Shown here: piece by piece, positions 996-22,179 of the stretch
Layout: each line of letters starts with the position of its first letter
Numbering within the stretch: the stretch's first letter is position 1
Assembly (NCBI GenBank): GCA_963674595.2
Contig: CAXXFV010000029.1
Coordinates: 167,312 to 231,311 of the forward strand
Origin: a bacterium
GTDB lineage: Bacteria > Zhuqueibacterota > Zhuqueibacteria > Residuimicrobiales > Krinioviventaceae
Length of the DNA stretch: 64,000 bases
Direction of reading: 5' to 3'
The notes under the pieces: generated by a model
What the model was told of the DNA's origin: nothing
Seen by the model: only the letters and a program-made list of their open reading frames with translations
Databases searched by the model: none
Position numbers and translations under genes: made by a program

Positions 996-2606
996 ATGGT
1001 TCAGTTTGCATGGCTGGATTATTTTTGGACAATAGCCTATCTTATTCTCATGATCGGCTGCGGAGCCATATTTTACAAGCTTGGTAAACGTTCCGAATCT
1101 GATTTTTTTCTGGCAGGGCGCGGACTGCCCTGGTGGCTGCCCGCAACATCAAACTTTGCAACACACACAGCAACAGATACTCCCATGTGGTTTTCAGGGC
1201 TTGTCTATTCAAAGGGACTCTATGGTATGTGGTACTCCCTTTTTGCAGGCTGGTGCGCCATTAGTGCATGGGTATCAACGCGAATTTTCCGACGTTCATT
1301 GGCCGGTACACAGGCAGAGTGGCAAACCTTACGTTTCAGCGGATTAGGTTCGGAGCTGCTGCGAGGCTGGATGGCCGGATGGCAGGTGGCTATGTCCATG
1401 TTTATTGCCGGCTGGGTAGGCATTGCCATGGGTAATGTCTGTAATTATGCGTTTGGCTGGCCGTTGTGGTATGGACTGGTTATCTTTTCAACCCTGTGCT
1501 GTTTGTATGTTATTGCAGCCGGTTACTGGGGCGTTATTATTGCCGACGTACAACAGGGTATCACCATGTTTATCGTTATTATTCTGGTTTCTGTTTGGGC
1601 TGCCATTGCTGCCGGCGGACCCAGTGAAATTGTCGCCAAACTGCACGAAATGAACGTCAGCGAAATGCTCAATCCGTTTCGTACATCGGGATTCATGTCC
1701 GGTGATTACCCGCTGCTTTGGCTGATTACCATGATTGCGGTGCCGTTTCTCGGTGGTTTTGGTATGGCAACCCATTTTGACTGGTTTGTTGAAGCACAAC
1801 GCATTCAGTCTGCCAGAAACGTTAAAGATGCGGCCTATAGCATTTGGTGGGGAACTGCCGCTGTTATTTTTAGAAACGCCATCTGGGGTATTGCTATCCT
1901 TGCTATTTTTGTTATCACACAGGGTAACCTGTCAAATACTGAAGCGCAGTTGGCATGGTTTAAAATCGGTTTTGAATATTTTCCGGTCGGAATGGTTGGA
2001 TTTTTCTTTGCCGCTATTTTGGCCATTCACATTTCTTCTGTTGCCGGTATTTTAAATTTAGGTTCCATGTATGCAACACGCGATTTGTACCATCATTATA
2101 TTAATCCAAAAGCCAGCGAAGCCAAAGTTGTATGGATTGGCCGAATTATGACGATTGTCGTGCTTCTTGGGTCGTTCTTTTTCGGATTGATGATTGGAAC
2201 AGATATTGTTGACTGGTTGTTTTTCGCCCTCTGGCTGATGGTTGCCGGAACATGGGTGCCGAATATTTTGCAGGTCATTTGGTGGCGCTTTAACGCATGG
2301 GGCTATTTGTCCGCATGGATCGCAAACCTTGGTATCTGCTGGCTGGTTGTTTGGGTGCTTCCATCCTATGGAATGATTCCCGACTTGCCGGATTATCAAC
2401 AATTCTGGCTGCTCATCGTTCTTGTCGCACTCGTATATATTCCGGTCACATTTTTAACAAAACCGGATGATATGGACAAACTGGTTAAAGTATATGCACA
2501 AACACGCCCGATCGGCTTTTGGGGTCCGGTTAAAAAAGAAGCAGAACGCCGCGGTTTACTTCAAGCTATTGAAGAATTAGACCGTAAAGCTGAACAAGAA
2601 GTTTAG
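996..2606 (+). CDS. Sodium:solute symporter (SSF) family transporter
   Basis: 536 aa polytopic membrane protein. N-terminal FFLAGRGLPWWLPATSNFATHTATDTPMWFSG resembles the SSF signature. GGAGG lies 7 nt upstream of the ATG. Confidence 0.7.
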   Translation: MVQFAWLDYFWTIAYLILMIGCGAIFYKLGKRSESDFFLAGRGLPWWLPATSNFATHTATDTPMWFSGLVYSKGLYGMWYSLFAGWCAISAWVSTRIFRRSLAGTQAEWQTLRFSGLGSELLRGWMAGWQVAMSMFIAGWVGIAMGNVCNYAFGWPLWYGLVIFSTLCCLYVIAAGYWGVIIADVQQGITMFIVIILVSVWAAIAAGGPSEIVAKLHEMNVSEMLNPFRTSGFMSGDYPLLWLITMIAVPFLGGFGMATHFDWFVEAQRIQSARNVKDAAYSIWWGTAAVIFRNAIWGIAILAIFVITQGNLSNTEAQLAWFKIGFEYFPVGMVGFFFAAILAIHISSVAGILNLGSMYATRDLYHHYINPKASEAKVVWIGRIMTIVVLLGSFFFGLMIGTDIVDWLFFALWLMVAGTWVPNILQVIWWRFNAWGYLSAWIANLGICWLVVWVLPSYGMIPDLPDYQQFWLLIVLVALVYIPVTFLTKPDDMDKLVKVYAQTRPIGFWGPVKKEAERRGLLQAIEELDRKAEQEV

Positions 2607-2615
2607 GAGGATATT

Positions 2616-2909
2616 ATGGGCTTTATAAAACGTAAATGGACCCCGCATGAAGCTGAAGAGTGGACAAAGGAAGACTGGATTGCGATTGTCATTTCCCCGT
2701 TTAGTTATATTTTATTAACGATGGGACTTGGTATGTCGCTCTTTCTGATACCACTTGGCTTTATATTGCTGGGCATTGGTATTGTTATTACAGTAATTAT
2801 GTTTTACTCAATCGGTCCCAAGCTGGACGCTGTTTCTGAAGGTTATGAGAAAAAACAGCGTGAATATCTGAAAGACCTGGAAAAGATTCAAAGATGGGAG
2901 GATGAATAA
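2616..2909 (+). CDS. Small membrane protein (2 TM), hypothetical, co-oriented with the symporter
   Basis: 97 aa ORF starting 10 nt after the symporter stop, with a GGAGG RBS. It has two hydrophobic helices and a charged C-terminus. Confidence 0.6.
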   Translation: MGFIKRKWTPHEAEEWTKEDWIAIVISPFSYILLTMGLGMSLFLIPLGFILLGIGIVITVIMFYSIGPKLDAVSEGYEKKQREYLKDLEKIQRWEDE

Positions 2910-3031
2910 TGGAAAAAGGGTTAACCGTTGTTATTGGAATGACCATATCATATTTATTCTCTTTGGCAGGCCTTATATTCGCATGGGTCTATTACAAGAA
3001 AAATAAAAAACAAGCAAGCAAAAGGAGTTAA
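2909..3031 (+). CDS. 40-aa single-TM peptide, hypothetical
   Basis: The ATG overlaps the preceding stop (TAATG), and GGGAGG lies upstream. Manual translation: MEKGLTVVIGMTISYLFSLAGLIFAWVYYKKNKKQASKRS. It is below the ORF-track size cutoff. Confidence 0.4.
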   Translation: MEKGLTVVIGMTISYLFSLAGLIFAWVYYKKNKKQASKRS

Positions 3032-3036
3032 AAAAT

Positions 3037-3192
3037 ATGTTAGCCATTATAGCTCAGGCCACACGAATAGGCAGCCCGATCCTTGGGTATGTTATTCCGG
3101 CCGTTATCTTTTTTGTCTCATTTCTGGTTGCTTATCTTCTTTATGTGCATTTTACCAAACAAATGCACTCGACTGATTCTGAAGAAAAGTAA
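3037..3192 (+). CDS. 51-aa membrane peptide, hypothetical
   Basis: AAAGGAG RBS precedes the ATG at 3037. Manual translation: MLAIIAQATRIGSPILGYVIPAVIFFVSFLVAYLLYVHFTKQMHSTDSEEK. A strong terminator follows. Confidence 0.45.
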   Translation: MLAIIAQATRIGSPILGYVIPAVIFFVSFLVAYLLYVHFTKQMHSTDSEEK

Positions 3193-3227
3193 ATATGATA
3201 TAAATTTCTTTTATATTAAAATAAAAA

Positions 3228-3256
3228 CGGACAGTGATGATCACTGTCCGTTTTTT
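3228..3256 (+). terminator. Rho-independent terminator of the symporter operon
   Basis: cggacagtga-tga-tcactgtccg forms a perfect 10-bp stem and is followed by TTTTTT. Confidence 0.8.
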
Positions 3257-3296
3257 GTTTTATAACGTTTCTGCTCTTTATTTTGGTTCAAACAAG

Positions 3297-5003
3297 ATCG
3301 AAACAACTCATTCCCGGAAAGCAGGATTCAGATAGTTTCACGGTATTCCTTTGTGCTCTTTGTGGAAAATGATAACTCACCATATTCAAAAAACTCATAC
3401 TCCCCAATACTGAAACGCGGAAACCATTGTGTACATTGTGTTAAAAAATCACAATGCCCAATTAAATCCATCCAAAAGTAAAAATCCGTGTTGATTAGTT
3501 TTAACCGCCAAGAACACAAAGAATACACAAAGGACACAAAGAATTAATAATATCTATTTCATCTCAATACTAATACCGAAACACCTCATTCCCGGAAAGC
3601 AGGATTCCAAACAGCTTTACGATATTCCTTTGTGATCTTTGTGGAAAAGGATAACTCGCCATATTTAAAAAACTCATACTCCCCAATACTGAAACGCGGA
3701 AACCATTGTGTCCTTTGTGTTAAAAAAAATCACAATGCCCTAATTAAATCCATCCCAAAGGAGAGCATCGTGTCGATTAGTTTTAACCGCCAAAAACACA
3801 AAGAATACACAAAGAATACAAAGAATTAATAATATCTATTTCATTTCAATTCAGACACCGAAACACCTCATTCCCGGAAAGCAGGATTCAGATAGTTTCA
3901 CGGTATTCCTTTGTGATCTTTGTGGAAAATGATAATTCGCCATATTCAAAAAACTCATACCCCCCAATGCTGAAACGCGGAAACCATTGTGTACATTGTG
4001 TTAAAAAATCACAATGCCCCAATTAAATTCATCTCAATGTAAAATTCCGAGTCGATTAGTTTTAACCGCCAAAAACACAAAGAATACAAAGAATTAATAA
4101 TATCTATTTCATTTCAATTCAGACACCGAAACACCTCATTCCCGGAAAGCAGGATTCAGATAGTTTCACGGTATTCCTTTGTGATCTTTGTGGAAAATGA
4201 TAACTCGCCATATTCAAAAAACTCATACACCCCAATACTGAAACGCGGAAAGCATTGTGTACATTGTGTTAAAAAATCACAATGCCCTAATTAAATCCAT
4301 CCAAAAGTAAAAATCCGTGTTGATTAGTTTTAACCGCCAAGAACACAAAGGATACACAAAGGGCACAAAGAATTAATAATATCTATTTCATCTCAACACA
4401 GACACCGAAACACCTCATTCCCGGAAAGCAGGATTCAGATAGTTTCACGGTATTCCTTTGTGATCTTTGTGGAAAATGATAACTCGCCATATTCAAAAAA
4501 CTCATACTCCCCAATACTGAAACGCGGAAACCATTGTGTACATTGTGTTAAAAAATCACAATGCCCTAATTAAATCCATCCCAAAGGAGAGCATCGTGTC
4601 GATTAGTTTTAACCGCCAAAAACACAAAGAATACACAAAGAATACAAAGAATTAATAATATCTATTTCATTTCAATTCAGACACCGAAACACCTCATTCC
4701 CGGAAAGCAGGATTCCAAACAGCTTTACGATATTCCTTTGTGATCTTTGTGGAAAATGATAACTCGCCATATTCAAAAAACTCATATTCCCCAACACGGA
4801 AACACGGAAACCATTGTGTACATTGTGTTAAAAAATCATTATGCCCCAGTTAAATTCGTCTTAATGTAAAATTCCGAGTCTATCAATTTTAACCGCCAAG
4901 AACACAAAGGATACACAAAGGGCACAAAGAATTAATAATATCTATTTCATCTCAATACTAATACCGAAACAACTCATTCCCGGCAAGAAGGAATCCAGCA
5001 TAC
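3297..5003. repeat. Tandem array: 6 full copies plus one truncated copy of a ~280-bp non-coding unit
   Basis: The motif ctcattcccgg recurs at 3307, 3585, 3867, 4135, 4414, 4693 and 4973, giving periods of 278/282/268/279/279/280. Units are roughly 85-95% identical by eye, and reading frames are not conserved between them. Confidence 0.95.
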
Positions 5004-5021
5004 GATTATTCTTTTGGTTGA

Positions 5022-5073
5022 AAGGTACAGCCCTAGCGTTAACCCGTCCCGGGACAGTACCACAGGATAATCA
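5022..5073. repeat. 53-nt conserved module (copy 1) immediately 3' of minus-strand orphan gene 5071..6138
   Basis: aaaggtacagccctagcgttaacccgtcccgggacagtaccacaggataatca aligns without gaps to 6534-6586 (39/53 identical). It contains the palindrome gtcccgggac. Confidence 0.7.
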
Positions 5074-6138
5074 GTGATAATTAATAATCTCTCCATCCTC
5101 AGAAACACGATACGGTCGCCAATTTTCCCCACCGTAATCATAAATTCTATAGCCTAATCTTTTAAAAAGACTTTTTTCCCTTGTTGTAAAATCATACATC
5201 AAAAAACCACCAGGATTAAGCCATCCAGGTAATATTGGTGAATCATAAAAAAAGAATAATTTCTCATTTCCAAGACAACGACACCAACCTATTCTATAAT
5301 CAGAAAACAACTTTGTAACCTGGTCCGTTTCTACATTATACAAAAAAACATGTTCCTGATCTTTGCTGACAACAAGCTCATGGTTCGAATACCATGTTAT
5401 CGGTGTATAGTTTTTAATAATTTTATCAATTCTGTTTGTTTTTAAATTTAATAAATATATCAAGGTACAATCTTGACTTTTGTCATAGGTTCTCACAAAA
5501 TAATATTTTTTATTCTTGGTAAAATGGTAATCATATGACATTGGCAGTCCAACGATGTCATTAAACTCTTTAATCTTTGATATGTATTTTTCCTCAAGAT
5601 TAAGCAGCCAAAGGACATATTTATCTTCCTCTTTAACTGATGCCTTAAACAGCAATATCACCTTTTCTTCAACATTATACATTTTCCACAACATGTCTTT
5701 TTCCAATACATTTTCATCCTTTACAAAATTTGTGTCTTCATAACTTACAGTATATTCGACATTATAATTCATGTCATACACATTAAAATCGTGATTATGA
5801 GTACGATGAAAATTAGTAAAATGAAAATTAGATTCAAGAATATAACAACCAATGTATAAACCATAATGCCAGCCCAGTTTAAACAGGTATTTTTTTTCTT
5901 TCAAACTATAACCAACACAGCCGTCACTTGCAACTTCATTAAAGACCAAAGTATCTTTGTTAACTAAATATGGTGTTGACACATGGCTATTGGCTTGGTA
6001 TAAAAGGACCTCTTGTTTGGTTGAAATATCCTTACTATAAATAGCTTTATCCTTTGGATGATAATACAACAAGTATTCCTGAGCGATGACATTTGTAGCC
6101 ATACAAATAACTAATAACGTATATTGAAGAAATTTCAT
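5071..6138 (-). CDS. Hypothetical secreted protein, possible PD40/TolB-like beta-propeller repeats
   Basis: 355 aa with an N-terminal signal peptide (MKFLQYTLLVICMATNVIAQ). Recurring motifs of the type Y.LN..T....K. The gene is very AT-rich compared with its neighbours. Confidence 0.6.
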   Translation of the reverse strand: MKFLQYTLLVICMATNVIAQEYLLYYHPKDKAIYSKDISTKQEVLLYQANSHVSTPYLVNKDTLVFNEVASDGCVGYSLKEKKYLFKLGWHYGLYIGCYILESNFHFTNFHRTHNHDFNVYDMNYNVEYTVSYEDTNFVKDENVLEKDMLWKMYNVEEKVILLFKASVKEEDKYVLWLLNLEEKYISKIKEFNDIVGLPMSYDYHFTKNKKYYFVRTYDKSQDCTLIYLLNLKTNRIDKIIKNYTPITWYSNHELVVSKDQEHVFLYNVETDQVTKLFSDYRIGWCRCLGNEKLFFFYDSPILPGWLNPGGFLMYDFTTREKSLFKRLGYRIYDYGGENWRPYRVSEDGEIINYH

Positions 6139-6267
6139 AAAGACTCCTGATAATCGCCATTATAAACTGCGTTTGACCATAGACCGATAAATAGTACATA
6201 TAAAAAAGATAAATGACGCCATAGACTCCGGGACAAAACCGCCAGGAACAGACTTTTTCCCGAGTAC

Positions 6268-6466
6268 TCTTCCTTTGTGATCTTTGTGAAAGACTATAAT
6301 TCGCCATATTCAAAAAACTCATACACCCCAACACTGAATCGCGGAAACCATTGTGTCCTTTGTGTTAAAAAAAAACACAATGCCCTAATTAAATCCATCC
6401 CAAAGTAAAATTCCGAGTCGATCAATTTTAACCGCCAAGAACACAAAGAATACACAAAGGACAAAG
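6268..6466. repeat. Solo copy of the ~195-bp core of the tandem-array unit
   Basis: The stretch ttcctttgtgatctttgtg...cgcggaaaccattgtgtcctttgtgtt...ttaaccgccaagaacacaaagaatacacaaagg matches the array core. It lacks both the ctcattcccgg hairpin module and the AT-rich linker. Confidence 0.85.
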
Positions 6467-6533
6467 TTTTCAAGCATTCCTCTGCGAACCTCTGCGGTCT
6501 CTGCAACTCTGCGTTTAAAAAATAATAAAATAC

Positions 6534-6586
6534 AAAGGTACAACCCTCATTTCAAGTTATCCCGGGGTAGCACTACAGGATAATCA
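6534..6586. repeat. 53-nt conserved module (copy 2), 3' of minus-strand orphan gene 6637..7056
   Basis: aaaggtacaaccctcatttcaagttatcccggggtagcactacaggataatca. See 5022-5073 for the alignment. Confidence 0.7.
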
Positions 6587-6636
6587 TTTTTTTAATTCTA
6601 AAGCCCAGGAGTAAAAATTTTTGGACGAATTTAATT

Positions 6637-7056
6637 TTATGGCATGTCTCTAAAAATAAGTCCCTTCATTTTAACAACTTTACCATTTTTGATATATACA
6701 TTCATATGCTCAACCAAACTTTTGTAAGCCACATACTTGAATATTTCATACTCAATTCCATCTTTTTTCTTATTTTTAATCTTTTTGGGCTTTATAGGAA
6801 AATTCTCCAATTCCGATTTATCTTGCCCCAAATAAATTGACAAGTTATTTGGATTATATTTTCGGTCTCCAATTTTAGGGCGCTGTAAAAAAAGAGTATC
6901 TTTAGCAGCACTAAAATTAATACCATATAATTCATTATCATGAGTATAGCCAAAACTTCTATTGAACGTACTAGTTTCATCTATTGTTATAGATGTGTGA
7001 AGTACTGTACAGCCACTTATTAAAAATAAACAAACTATTATTATTAATACTTTCAT
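6637..7056 (-). CDS. Hypothetical lipoprotein
   Basis: 139 aa with a lipobox-like N-terminus (MKVLIIIVCLFLISGC). AT-rich. Confidence 0.6.
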   Translation of the reverse strand: MKVLIIIVCLFLISGCTVLHTSITIDETSTFNRSFGYTHDNELYGINFSAAKDTLFLQRPKIGDRKYNPNNLSIYLGQDKSELENFPIKPKKIKNKKKDGIEYEIFKYVAYKSLVEHMNVYIKNGKVVKMKGLIFRDMP

Positions 7057-7284
7057 ATTATTTATTACCTTTTATTCATCATAAAAAAATTACCACCTTT
7101 GATCAATATTATGTCTGGAATTATATGCAAGTTGCAACCAGAGGGAACCAACTACATGGCCGGCACCATGAAATGACTGCCAAAATCCTATATTTAATTT
7201 ACCCGGTAACAATTGTGTCGGCAAAAAATGTGTCCCCCAAGAGGCATTAATAACCTGGGCCGTGGCACTTTTTAATAAAACTAT

Positions 7285-10676: not shown

Positions 10677-11117
10677 TCATTTCAGGTAATCTTTAATATC
10701 ATCCTTTACCAAAAGTAATATGTTTTGAATATTATGAACCAATGGTTCAATTTTTTGTGGATACAAATCTAACGCATAATTATGCGAAAAAAAATGACGA
10801 AAAGCTAAATATTCTGCCAACTGACTTTTCGTCTCTGGCAGTATAACAGCGTTTAATTCTGCAAGATTTAACAGGTCCCTGTGCCATGATGCCGTGTCTG
10901 GAATAGGTATCATTTTATCTTTTAAAATTTGCTTTAGTATATTTTCTATTCCATTATAAAAATTATGTAAAAGGGTGGCAACGCCTGCCAATTCAAGAGT
11001 GGATAATCGATGTAAAGGGATATCGAATGGAATTTCGCTCAAAAGGTTTTCAATGTGCTCAAGTTCGACCTCAATTTTCACTTTCAAACTAGCCATATAA
11101 TTGAAGCCCTTCGGCAA
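10677..11117 (-). CDS. hepT: HEPN-domain toxin (HepT/DUF86-like) of a type VII TA pair
   Basis: The R-x4-H-x-Y motif is present (FRHFFSHNY). The gene overlaps the upstream nucleotidyltransferase gene. The real start may be the second Met at 11096, which would give an 8-nt overlap. Confidence 0.75.
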   Translation of the reverse strand: MPKGFNYMASLKVKIEVELEHIENLLSEIPFDIPLHRLSTLELAGVATLLHNFYNGIENILKQILKDKMIPIPDTASWHRDLLNLAELNAVILPETKSQLAEYLAFRHFFSHNYALDLYPQKIEPLVHNIQNILLLVKDDIKDYLK

Positions 11118-18878: not shown

Positions 18879-19805
18879 TTGTCTTCTCTGCAAACGTTAA
18901 CGGCAAAGACCGGTGTTCCTTTGAGTTTATTACTCAAGACCATTGGTTTGTCCTGGACCCGGTACTATGACTGGCAAAAACGTTTTGGTCAACCAAATCA
19001 ACATAACAGCGACACACCTCGCAGCTTTTGGCTGGAACCGTGGGAGTGTCAACGTATCATAAAATACAAAAAGGAACATATGCAGATCGGCTATAAACGA
19101 CTGACCTATATGATGCTTGATGAAAATGTTGTTGCTGTGAGCCCGTCAACGACCTATCGTATTCTGCGGAACGCCGGACTCACAAGTCAATGGAATAACA
19201 GTACGTTACAATCAAATAAGAAAGGCTTTATTCAACCCAAAAGACCGCATCAGCATTGGCATATAGATATTTCCTATATTGCCTTTCATGGTTCGCATCT
19301 CTTTTTGATTTCTGTACTGGACGGATTTTCAAGATTTATCGTTCACCATGAATTAAGAACTCATATGCAGGAATATGATGTCGAGATTGTACTGCAAAGA
19401 GCTTTGGAAAAATATCCAAATGAAAAACCTCGAATTATTTCCGATAATGGTTCACAGTTTATTGCCAATGACTTTAAATCTTTTTTAAGGTTAAATAATT
19501 TGACGCACGTTCGAACTTCGATTAATCATCCACAGTCGAATGGTAAAATTGAAGCTTTTCATAAAATCATTAAAAATGAATGCACCCGAATTCAAAGTAT
19601 GATTAATCTGGAGGATGCCAGAAATAAAGTCGTACTTTATATCCATCAATACAACTATAACCGGTTACACAGTGCTATTGGATTTATTACACCATTTGAC
19701 AAATTATCAGGAAAAGCTGATAGTATTTTCAAAGAACGTGATATGAAACTTGAACAAGCCCGCCAAAGAAGGCAGGAAAACAATAAAATTATAAAGGCAG
19801 CTTAA
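18879..19805 (+). CDS. IS3 transposase OrfB (DDE/rve integrase core)
   Basis: DDE residues lie in HWHIDISY, IISDNGSQF and NGKIEAFHKIIKNE. Confidence 0.85.
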   Translation: MSSLQTLTAKTGVPLSLLLKTIGLSWTRYYDWQKRFGQPNQHNSDTPRSFWLEPWECQRIIKYKKEHMQIGYKRLTYMMLDENVVAVSPSTTYRILRNAGLTSQWNNSTLQSNKKGFIQPKRPHQHWHIDISYIAFHGSHLFLISVLDGFSRFIVHHELRTHMQEYDVEIVLQRALEKYPNEKPRIISDNGSQFIANDFKSFLRLNNLTHVRTSINHPQSNGKIEAFHKIIKNECTRIQSMINLEDARNKVVLYIHQYNYNRLHSAIGFITPFDKLSGKADSIFKERDMKLEQARQRRQENNKIIKAA

Positions 19806-21423: not shown

Positions 21424-21458
21424 AAATGTAAAGCAGGTAACAAAGTAATACCCCCGCT

Positions 21459-21507
21459 CGCCCTGGAAAACATTTCCAGGGCGCAAATCAGGCGGGGTAT
21501 GTACCCC
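21459..21507. repeat. REP-like hairpins 5' of the RAYT gene
   Basis: cgccctggaaa-aca-tttccagggcg (11-bp stem, 21459-21483) and ggggta-tg-tacccc (21494-21507). Confidence 0.75.
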
Positions 21508-21545
21508 GATAAAACAAAATTTAAAGAAACCATTGTACAGATAAA

Positions 21546-22097
21546 ATGAAACACTATAAAACCCAAAATGATTCTAATGTTTATTTTTCCACATGTACTA
21601 TTGTGCAATGGCAATGTCTTTTTATAGAGCAAAAATATTTTCAGATAATAACAAACAGCTTAAACTATTGTATTAAAAACAAAGGACTGTCTATTATCGC
21701 GTATGTTATTATGCTTAACCATCTGCATTTAGTAACAGTTAATACAAAAGAAACCGTATTGTCCAACATCATGCGGGATTTCAAACGGTTTACATCCATA
21801 CAGATTGCCGGACAATTGGAAAAAGACAACAAAAAATTGCTGCTGCATATTTTCAACAAAGCTGTGGAAGGCAGAGCAAAATCACAACAATATAAAATAT
21901 GGCAGGATGAATTCCATCCTAAAGCTGTTTATACACCCGATTTTTTAACACAAAAATTGGAATATATTCACAACAATCCGGTCAGAAAAGGACTGGTACA
22001 AGAACCTGAACAGTGGCGTTACAGCAGCGCACAAATGCTATTTATGAACGAAAAGAATGATGTAAACATTAATATGAATCTGCTATTTGAGGACTGA
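21546..22097 (+). CDS. REP-associated tyrosine transposase (RAYT; IS200/IS605-like Y1 HUH transposase)
   Basis: 183 aa with the HUH motif in VIMLNHLHLV and the catalytic Tyr context LEYIHNNPVRKGLV. Confidence 0.8.
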   Translation: MKHYKTQNDSNVYFSTCTIVQWQCLFIEQKYFQIITNSLNYCIKNKGLSIIAYVIMLNHLHLVTVNTKETVLSNIMRDFKRFTSIQIAGQLEKDNKKLLLHIFNKAVEGRAKSQQYKIWQDEFHPKAVYTPDFLTQKLEYIHNNPVRKGLVQEPEQWRYSSAQMLFMNEKNDVNINMNLLFED

Positions 22098-22098
22098 T

Positions 22099-22149
22099 CA
22101 GGGCAAATGCCCCATTTTTTTAACGCCCTGGAAAAAATATCCAGGGCGA
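22099..22149. repeat. REP-like hairpins 3' of the RAYT gene
   Basis: cagggcaaatgcccc, then cgccctgga-aaaaaata-tccagggcg (9-bp stem, 22125-22149). Confidence 0.75.
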
Positions 22150-22179
22150 GCAATTTTCTAACAAAATACTTTTAAGGCC

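Follow-up and report, generated by a model that had tools for sequence, protein, structure and literature searches.

A long-period tandem array of non-coding units

The 64-kb stretch analysed here (the window), part of contig CAXXFV010000029.1 from a bacterium of the phylum Zhuqueibacterota, carries a tandem array of non-coding units of about 280 bp, which we interpret, at a probability of roughly one half, as a lineage-specific, internally recombining tandem amplification of a compound foldback element akin to repetitive extragenic palindromes (REPs) and bacterial interspersed mosaic elements (BIMEs) or to transposable elements of the miniature inverted-repeat kind (MITEs). Tandem Repeats Finder (TRF) reported one long-period array in the window, at 3299-4992, with a period of 279 bp, 6.1 copies and 89% matches. 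The anchor CTCATTCCCGGAAAGCAGGAT recurs exactly at 3307, 3585, 3867, 4135, 4414 and 4693 and with three mismatches at 4973, against a chance expectation of zero. An earlier note on this sequence had described six tandem copies ending in a truncated one and had placed the anchor at these seven positions; both descriptions were borne out, the final copy proving degenerate as well as truncated.

TRF, nhmmer and alignment place the units on the plus strand at 3299-3576 (unit 1, allele combination 1a; nhmmer E 2e-92), 3577-3858 (unit 2, 2b, whose inner segment is the GTGTCCTTTGTGTTAAAAAAAA variant), 3859-4126 (unit 3, 1c, in which one 3' heptamer was lost through an 11-bp deletion), 4127-4405 (unit 4, 1a, taken as reference), 4406-4684 (unit 5, 1b) and 4685-4964 (unit 6, 2c, the most diverged within the array). 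Unit 7 (4965-5020; nhmmer 4965-5016) consists of the module with three mismatches followed by a decayed 5' arm. An nhmmer profile of the units found copies at 3299-5016 and at 6222-6512, whereas the rest of the window, some 57 kb, yielded none. The second location is a diverged full unit, an eighth one lying beyond the array originally described (the solo unit; plus strand, core 6268-6465, E 8.5e-74 over model positions 4-271), and it is separated from the array by the orphan gene p355 (5071-6138, minus strand), so that the array lies downstream of p355 and the solo unit upstream. The heptamer CTTTGTG, which recurs in every unit, occurs 39 times in the window compared with 9.8 +/- 3.3 times in shuffled sequences, and 32 of these 39 occurrences fall within 3349-4929 or 6273-6459.

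The p355 protein is also encoded on an independent European Nucleotide Archive contig (ERZ21862489 contig_64, hereafter L075) with the same flanks, where the array comprises two full units of allele combinations 1b and 2a plus a truncated one. Since this second assembly holds the same locus with two units, the array is real, and its copy number varies between strains or assemblies. A possible assembly artefact, raised in the earlier note, is therefore dispelled as far as the existence of the element is concerned, but the two assemblies disagree in number (two units there, six here). Copy number thus appears to depend on the strain or the assembly, the exact figure of six being a reading of the window sequence.

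Anatomy and folding of the unit

Each unit contains a core of about 195 bp bounded by inverted, phased clusters of CTTTGTG and CACAAAG with heptamer spacings of 9-11 bp, and successive cores are joined by a constant linker of about 85 bp. In unit 4, read on the plus strand, a module (4135-4155) and a 5' variable segment (4156-4171) are followed by the 5' arm (4172-4193, CTTTGTG at 4177 and 4186), an inner hairpin (CATTGTG at 4253 and 4262, CACAATG at 4278), a central variable segment (~4297-4322), the 3' arm (4332-4370, CACAAAG at 4344, 4355 and 4364) and an AT-rich linker (4371-4405). Every unit proved to have inverted arms, each 21 nt long, with 81% complementarity and a separation of 151-164 nt. 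The inner hairpin CATTGTG-N9-CACAATG (for example 4262-4268 with 4278-4284) and the AT-rich linker are as first described. The inverted CTTTGTG clusters, likewise predicted to bound each core, occur in every unit, but the three reverse copies attributed to them are exact only in units 1, 4 and 6, units 2 and 5 having two and unit 3, with its deletion, one. The spacing of 9-11 bp was also correctly given, but the individual values (9, 9, 11 and 9 bp) do not amount to strict helical phasing. Over the eight array units used for the tests of variation, the 21-nt module and the heptamers are invariant, whereas the spacers between heptamers vary.

On neither strand does the whole unit fold more stably than its shuffles, z being -1.1 (plus) and -0.8 (minus). 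However, once the core is delimited at its arms it folds better than shuffles, with plus-strand z values from -2.6 to -5.2 and minus-strand values from -1.2 to -3.7, as does the hairpin spanning the linker when delimited in the same way (z -2.0 to -4.5). Two pairing registers are available, in which arms pair either across the 140-nt core or across the 75-nt linker. Because arm-delimited segments outperform shuffles and the whole unit does not, robust structure is confined to the inverted heptamer clusters, each of which has a possible pairing partner in either neighbour. The description of the unit as structured accordingly holds for its inverted arms but not for the unit as a whole, and the small hairpin proposed for the module amounts to a weak stem of 3-5 bp.

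Allele mosaic and recombination between units

Among the eight array units, 67 of 279 alignment columns are variable, and the variable sites are clustered, with a variance per 15-nt window of 6.6 compared with 2.6 after permutation, a value reached in 0 of 2000 permutations. The modular character of the variation, with two 5' alleles and three central alleles combined in the order 1a, 2b, 1c, 1a, 1b, 2c, had been read from the sequence exactly. The four-gamete test of Hudson and Kaplan gave Rm = 5, so that at least five recombination events are required, in agreement with the exchange between units proposed earlier. Units 1 and 4 differ from each other at 12 positions, as do units 2 and 5, and the central alleles follow one another as a-b-c-a-b-c. 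These near-duplicate pairs and this order suggest that a block of three units was duplicated and later reshuffled, leaving a partial three-unit higher-order repeat. The L075 units differ from every unit of the window at 20 positions or more.

On L075, the SSF transporter is called at 2444-4054 as two genes of 204 and 322 aa, and the tblastn matches of p97 and of a cupin are fragmented, which suggests frameshift errors from an error-prone long-read assembly.

Tests for coding, RNA and CRISPR function

Indels of 1, 2 and 11 nt disrupt every reading frame of the unit. The sole recurrent short open reading frame (ORF), MSFLNMASYHFPQRSQRN... on the minus strand, encodes a hydrophilic peptide and shifts frame between 5' alleles 1 and 2. 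The array is not a protein repeat, as the earlier note had concluded; its short ORFs are unconserved. Repeats of type I toxin-antitoxin systems (LDR- or SIB-like) were considered and rejected, there being no conserved small hydrophobic ORF per unit. A CRISPR array was likewise dismissed, in line with the earlier assessment, given the 279-bp period (CRISPR repeats measure about 24-48 bp and alternate with unique spacers of similar length), variable segments with only two or three recurring alleles, and the absence of a Cas domain among the scanned ORFs. The latter were 39 ORFs of the window, comprising the flanks of the island described below and most ORFs of at least 180 aa between 17.6 kb and 62.8 kb; a Pfam scan of these revealed no cas, integron integrase or other tyrosine recombinase, reverse transcriptase, rep or par gene.

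The proposal that the array consists of small RNA (sRNA) genes found no support. Rfam 15 gave no match at gathering thresholds over the window and no credible one at E values up to 5 over 2500-6000, where the only CsrB match, at 20 bits, fell short of the gathering threshold (71) and lay mostly over the terminator beside the array; ARAGORN found no tRNA. A consensus structure computed with RNAalifold from nine copies contained 44 pairs, 0 of 44 compensatory, with a covariation term of +1.25, so that the check for covariation proposed in the earlier note turned out negative, at the low power afforded by such closely related copies. At columns 65/233 (U-A to U-G) and at columns 24/40 (G-U to G-C), a one-sided change leaves pairing intact on the plus strand only. 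Sigma-70-like sites number 22 compared with 20.7 in shuffles, that is, shuffle frequency, in a probable member of candidate division KSB1, whose promoters may be of another type. The Bacteroidota-type promoter TTTG...TAnnTTTG is absent from the array and shows no enrichment in the window. Weak terminator-like stems occur in some units only, and by these criteria no promoter/terminator pair was recognised for any unit.

Mobile elements and sequence relatives

With 21-nt arms around a 195-bp core, the element lies within the 50-500 bp expected of a MITE, a non-coding element with terminal inverted repeats. Of the three roles suggested in the earlier note, an amplified MITE fits best, as judged from the separate diverged unit and from the presence of the arm motif in sharp-ended dispersed foldbacks, but neither a target-site duplication nor a parent transposase was found. 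No direct repeat is common to the flanks of the solo unit and of the array cores, which provide only two independent flank contexts, and an autonomous element with matching ends was found neither in the window nor in plasmid, phage, viral or genome collections. The ends of the IS3-like and Y1 elements of the window are unrelated to those of the unit. The IS3-like transposase (18879-19805; rve and HTH_21 domains) has no CTTTGTG nearby. The Y1 (IS200-like) transposase-like ORF (21546-22097, plus strand, 183 aa) is flanked at 21459-21483 and 22124-22148 by inverted REP-like hairpins of the form CGCCCTGGAAA-N3-TTTCCAGGGCG, and ORF and hairpins together (21456-22151) have the make-up of a typical gene for a REP-associated tyrosine transposase (RAYT) with its own REPs. 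A link of the array to this RAYT-like gene at 21.5 kb was ruled out, its flanking REPs being unrelated in sequence.

The DnaA-box consensus TTTTCCACA has one perfect match per array unit, located at the 5' arm's inner edge and read on the minus strand (3361-3369 in unit 1); outside the array there are 19 matches compared with about 11 expected for the whole window. The match in the array is probably incidental, a single 9-mer duplicated along with the unit.

As a whole, the unit has no homologue in genome, metagenome, viral, plasmid or phage collections (blastn for plasmids and phages, scans for the others), and the search among related genomes recommended earlier was equally negative, both in the genome collections and at 65 loci with relatives of the SSF transporter. 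The single metagenome match lies inside an rpoN gene, and the viral matches are unrelated sequences without similarity to the unit, several of them apparently coding; both were discarded.

The arms, by contrast with the whole unit, have relatives. The 19-mer AACCGCCAANAACACAAAG of the 3' arm matches 74 genome loci (L001-L074), and 23 of these provide a foldback context, defined as at least two inverted CTTNGYG heptamers within 150 nt, compared with 15 of 1362 control windows. At least six phyla are represented, with matches in Planctomycetota, Acidobacteriota, Chloroflexota, Gammaproteobacteria, Verrucomicrobiota and Bacteroidota. The related hairpin arms carry phased heptamers of the GCCAAG, GCAAAG or ACAAAG type. 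Heptamers of the class are CTTGGCG, CTTTGCG or CTTTGTG at 9-11-bp phasing, usually ending in GGTT...AACC (for example L038 7421-7439, L026 3617-3635 and L040 6394-6412). In metagenome-assembled genomes (MAGs) of Planctomycetaceae (CAZGMU01) and Terriglobales (DASRFC01), the matches align as dispersed repeats, about 150-170 bp long, whose ends are sharp and whose flanks are unrelated. Five further loci (L141-L145) also carry the foldback class. A scan with the inner motif detected the same architecture in an Ignavibacteria MAG, and in a Chloroflexi MAG it stands directly upstream of a gene with a superoxide dismutase-like N-terminus, as judged by eye. A Ferruginibacter MAG (L142 6415-7016) has a threefold tandem repeat of 200 bp with a phased-heptamer hairpin in each unit; that unit also spans the 3' end of one gene and the apparent start of the next ORF, and the repeat is a duplicated intergenic junction. 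Rfam searches of eight loci with related foldbacks returned only spurious matches to miRNA hairpins, the class having no Rfam family, and no description of a phased-heptamer foldback class was found in the literature. Judged by sequence comparison, the arms appear to belong to a broad, apparently unnamed class of extragenic foldbacks with phased CTTNGYG heptamers in many phyla. A strand asymmetry of the foldbacks over the 74 loci was set aside, as it is confounded by base composition.

A strain-specific low-GC island around the array

The array sits at a convergent-gene junction between the terminator of the SSF-transporter operon and the 3' end of p355 (5071), within an island (~3265-7284) of 30-36% GC flanked by sequence of 43-50% GC. 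Its left boundary is a bidirectional terminator hairpin (3214-3264) with 25-nt arms, 88% complementary and terminator-like on both strands. Base composition is strongly skewed on the plus strand (GC skew -0.23, AT skew +0.19). p355 encodes an orphan secreted protein of about 30-34% GC without a Pfam match, which has a single homologue (65% identity) among 5.8 billion proteins, and p139 (6637-7056, minus strand) is an orphan, lipoprotein-like ORF of low GC, also without a Pfam match. Each of the two genes is accompanied by a copy of a further sequence, termed the X element, recognised by local alignment and motif search and of the form AAAGGTACARCCCT...CCCGGG...ACAGGATAATCA: the first copy, of about 55 nt (5021-5073), overlaps the stop codon of p355, and the second (6534-6586) lies about 50 nt downstream of the stop codon of p139. 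No other copy was found in 185,579 species genomes; neither strand of the X element folds significantly, and it shows no similarity to the repeat unit.

Directly after the solo unit, a phased cluster of four CTCTGCG heptamers (6480-6515) looks in sequence like what decay has left of a following unit's 5' arm. In the minus-strand sequence of 6440-6530, G-U pairs allow the four phased CGCAGAG copies to form a hairpin with the CUUUGUG cluster (-24.8 kcal/mol, z -2.7), whereas on the plus strand the same segment forms no hairpin (z +0.3). The CUUUGUG cluster of the solo unit could alternatively pair with the CACAAAG cluster 140 nt downstream, which gives an alternative-hairpin geometry upstream of p355.

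The SSF transporter is 86% identical to transporters of KSB1 MAGs, which makes the uncultured host a probable member of candidate division KSB1, and the esterase adjoining the island has its nearest relative at 60% identity. At the 65 loci with SSF-transporter relatives, the transporter and three small membrane ORFs are kept, synteny stops at the terminator, and neither the repeat unit nor a comparable array is present. The island is strain-specific, low in GC and built of orphan genes. In the window, the SSF transporter (536 aa) and the three small membrane ORFs (97, 40 and 51 aa) occupy 996-3192, and this four-gene cassette is common to KSB1, Acidobacteriota, Rhodothermales, Fidelibacterota, Aminicenantes and others; its conservation across these lineages suggests a multi-subunit symporter. 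The array's immediate neighbours are thus the SSF-transporter operon, the orphan secreted proteins and the esterase. Over the wider window, the Pfam content comprises a transporter operon, glycoside hydrolases, proteins sorted by the type IX secretion system (T9SS), a HepT-like toxin (10677-11117) and the IS3-like and Y1 (RAYT-like) transposases, and the IS3-like transposase and the HepT-like toxin are signs of mobile, variable content in the region.

Origin of the array and rival explanations

The anatomy of the unit, the variation in copy number, the recombination, the lack of coding potential and of covariation, and the kinship of the arm motif to foldbacks elsewhere are observations, from which we infer the mechanism of amplification and a function that is generic or absent. 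The alternation of forward and reverse heptamer clusters would allow each cluster to pair with a partner to its left or right, whether in single-stranded DNA or in RNA. Such pairing, combined with the 89% identity between units, could favour slippage, unequal crossing-over and gene conversion, and these processes would produce the copy numbers of two and six, the allele mosaic, the partial higher-order repeat of three units and the decay at the edges. An old element homogenised internally would be consistent with the separate diverged unit and with the decay of the array edges. Any function is probably generic and REP- or BIME-like, through hairpins in read-through transcripts or DNA structure at the convergent junction, rather than that of dedicated RNA genes. 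We would best file the array as a new variant among known kinds of extragenic repeats, outside the curated families tested.

Several observations weigh against this interpretation. Neither a target-site duplication nor a transposase with matching ends was found, the ends of the IS3-like and Y1/RAYT-like genes of the window being unrelated, and the element occupies one neighbourhood only within the 64 kb, with no sign of dispersal across them. The invariance of the heptamers and the 21-nt module between variable spacers could be explained by selection for a binding partner rather than by recent amplification, and the skew of the plus strand and the one hairpin confined to the minus strand hint at a strand-specific role. 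The covariation test, based on nine closely related copies, has little power.

An alternative which we consider unlikely is that the minus strand encodes an RNA element, either the multi-hairpin 3' region of a p139-p355 transcript or a separate non-coding RNA, which would act in a REP-like manner (protection of mRNA 3' ends, attenuation) or as a CUUUGUG sponge for an RNA-binding protein. The units upstream (solo) and downstream (array) of p355 are oriented alike relative to this gene, the minus strand is rich in G and U, the hairpin between the fourfold CGCAGAG cluster and CUUUGUG next to the solo unit forms on that strand only, the stem of the module, as read from sequence, pairs U with G on the minus strand at a position that is a C-A mismatch on the plus strand, and a strong bidirectional terminator stands at the array end. 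However, compensatory pairs are lacking, the minus strand of the whole unit folds as its shuffles do, and the one-sided changes seen among array units speak for the plus strand instead. The lack of a recognised terminator per unit, promoter-like sites at shuffle frequency, the lack of an Rfam family and the lack of conservation of the unit in any related genome argue in the same direction. A role of the DNA itself, as in the iteron-like array suggested in the earlier note, with the heptamers bound by a transposase, a recombinase, a nucleoid protein or a protein of the partition or iteron-binding kind, or serving to titrate DnaA, appears rather improbable, with evidence on both sides. It would account for heptamers that are spaced 9-11 bp apart and are invariant in all nine copies between variable spacers, for two inverted clusters, which resemble multi-site transposon ends and plasmid centromeres, for a perfect DnaA box in each of the six array units, and for the recurrence of the heptamer type in many phyla, as a conserved partner would predict. 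Yet the adjacent genes include no rep, par, transposase or recombinase gene, the spacings are not in strict helical phase, the DnaA box is a single 9-mer copied with the unit, and arm-to-arm pairing or recent amplification explains the invariance of the heptamers equally well.

A further reading, for which we would give only slim odds, holds that the unit is a local amplified member of a pan-bacterial family of CTTNGYG foldbacks, whose near-identical arms in at least six phyla would reflect recognition by a conserved protein or mobilisation system, the array then being a multi-site platform; if true, this platform could serve as a sink for binding, as a landing pad for recombination or as a boundary of cassettes formed by p139 and p355. 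The possibility that the copy number is an artefact, the assembler having concatenated strain variants of a locus with one or two units into six, we regard as very unlikely. The sole other assembly of the locus does have two units, its contig breaks off 10 bp upstream of the start codon of p355 and about 120 bp short of the solo unit, at a break that may be repeat-related, and the unit exceeds typical k-mers. However, the six units are all different, ordered a-b-c-a-b-c and bounded by decayed edges, the L075 units are distinct from all of them, assemblies usually collapse repeats rather than expand them, and the source contig spans 248.6 kb. Least probable of all is a cassette-type array resembling an integrase-less cluster of attC sites, in which the units would be recombination sites, p139 and p355 captured cassettes, and the six units empty cassettes. 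Reading along the minus strand gives ORF, X, unit, ORF, X and then the six units, with the same two elements after each orphan low-GC ORF, and copy number differs between strains. Nevertheless, no integrase was found among the scanned ORFs of the 64 kb, the core of 195 bp exceeds the 57-141 bp of attC sites and by inspection contains no RYYYAAC/GTTRRRY pair, the X element has no further copy in the species genomes, and only two instances of an ORF with its site exist.

Comparison with known repeats and implications

Bacterial chromosomes do not commonly carry non-coding tandem arrays of long period, and knowledge of the repeats of candidate division KSB1 is scant. With the BIMEs of Enterobacteria (BIME-2, composed of REP units), the array shares an extragenic location, often at convergent genes or operon ends, alternating palindrome-forming motifs with two alternating linkers, variable tandem repetition and mosaics of motif variants. 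However, it is built of phased heptamer clusters, whereas REPs are palindromes of 20-40 bp with a GTAG or CGTC head; its arms are not palindromic in themselves and carry no such tag, its period of 279 bp exceeds theirs of about 100 bp or less, its element is restricted to 3299-5016 and 6222-6512 within the 64 kb, and the RAYT-like gene of the window has unrelated REPs. MITEs and foldback elements resemble it in their non-coding core (195 bp here) with imperfect terminal inverted repeats, in the separate diverged unit and in the related arm motifs of dispersed sharp-ended families in Planctomycetaceae and Terriglobales, and eukaryotic foldback elements also have arms built of short tandem sub-repeats. 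The array differs from these in its head-to-tail arrangement with a constant 85-bp linker, in its unusually long interior and in the lack of a detected target-site duplication or autonomous parent.

Satellites and minisatellites with higher-order repeats, which the array resembles in its concerted evolution, show the same head-to-tail order, changes in copy number (two versus six here), gene-conversion mosaic, multi-unit repeat (three units here) and decayed edges, but the present array lies on a bacterial chromosome, has six copies only and consists of units with internal inverted structure. Arrays of sRNAs and RNA sponges (LhrC1-5, CsrB/RsmZ) likewise consist of tandem non-coding units with a repeated short motif, but the array has no recognised promoter/terminator pair per unit, no covariation and no convincing Rfam match. 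Iteron and centromere arrays (parC-type) have clustered short direct repeats about 10 bp apart, as here, but the array is chromosomal, has no adjacent rep or par gene, and carries its clusters inverted and 140 bp apart.

Collectively, the array documents copy-number variation and internal recombination in a strain-specific island and is linked through its arms to phased-heptamer foldbacks in other phyla. If no protein partner or mechanism is shared among these foldbacks, the array would merely mark local genome instability. However, if the foldback class does share a protein partner or a mobilisation mechanism, it would represent a widespread and as yet unannotated genome feature, and also a source of spurious small ORFs and assembly breaks. 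The cross-phylum class of phased-heptamer foldbacks is a more interesting lead than the array, itself a modest curiosity.

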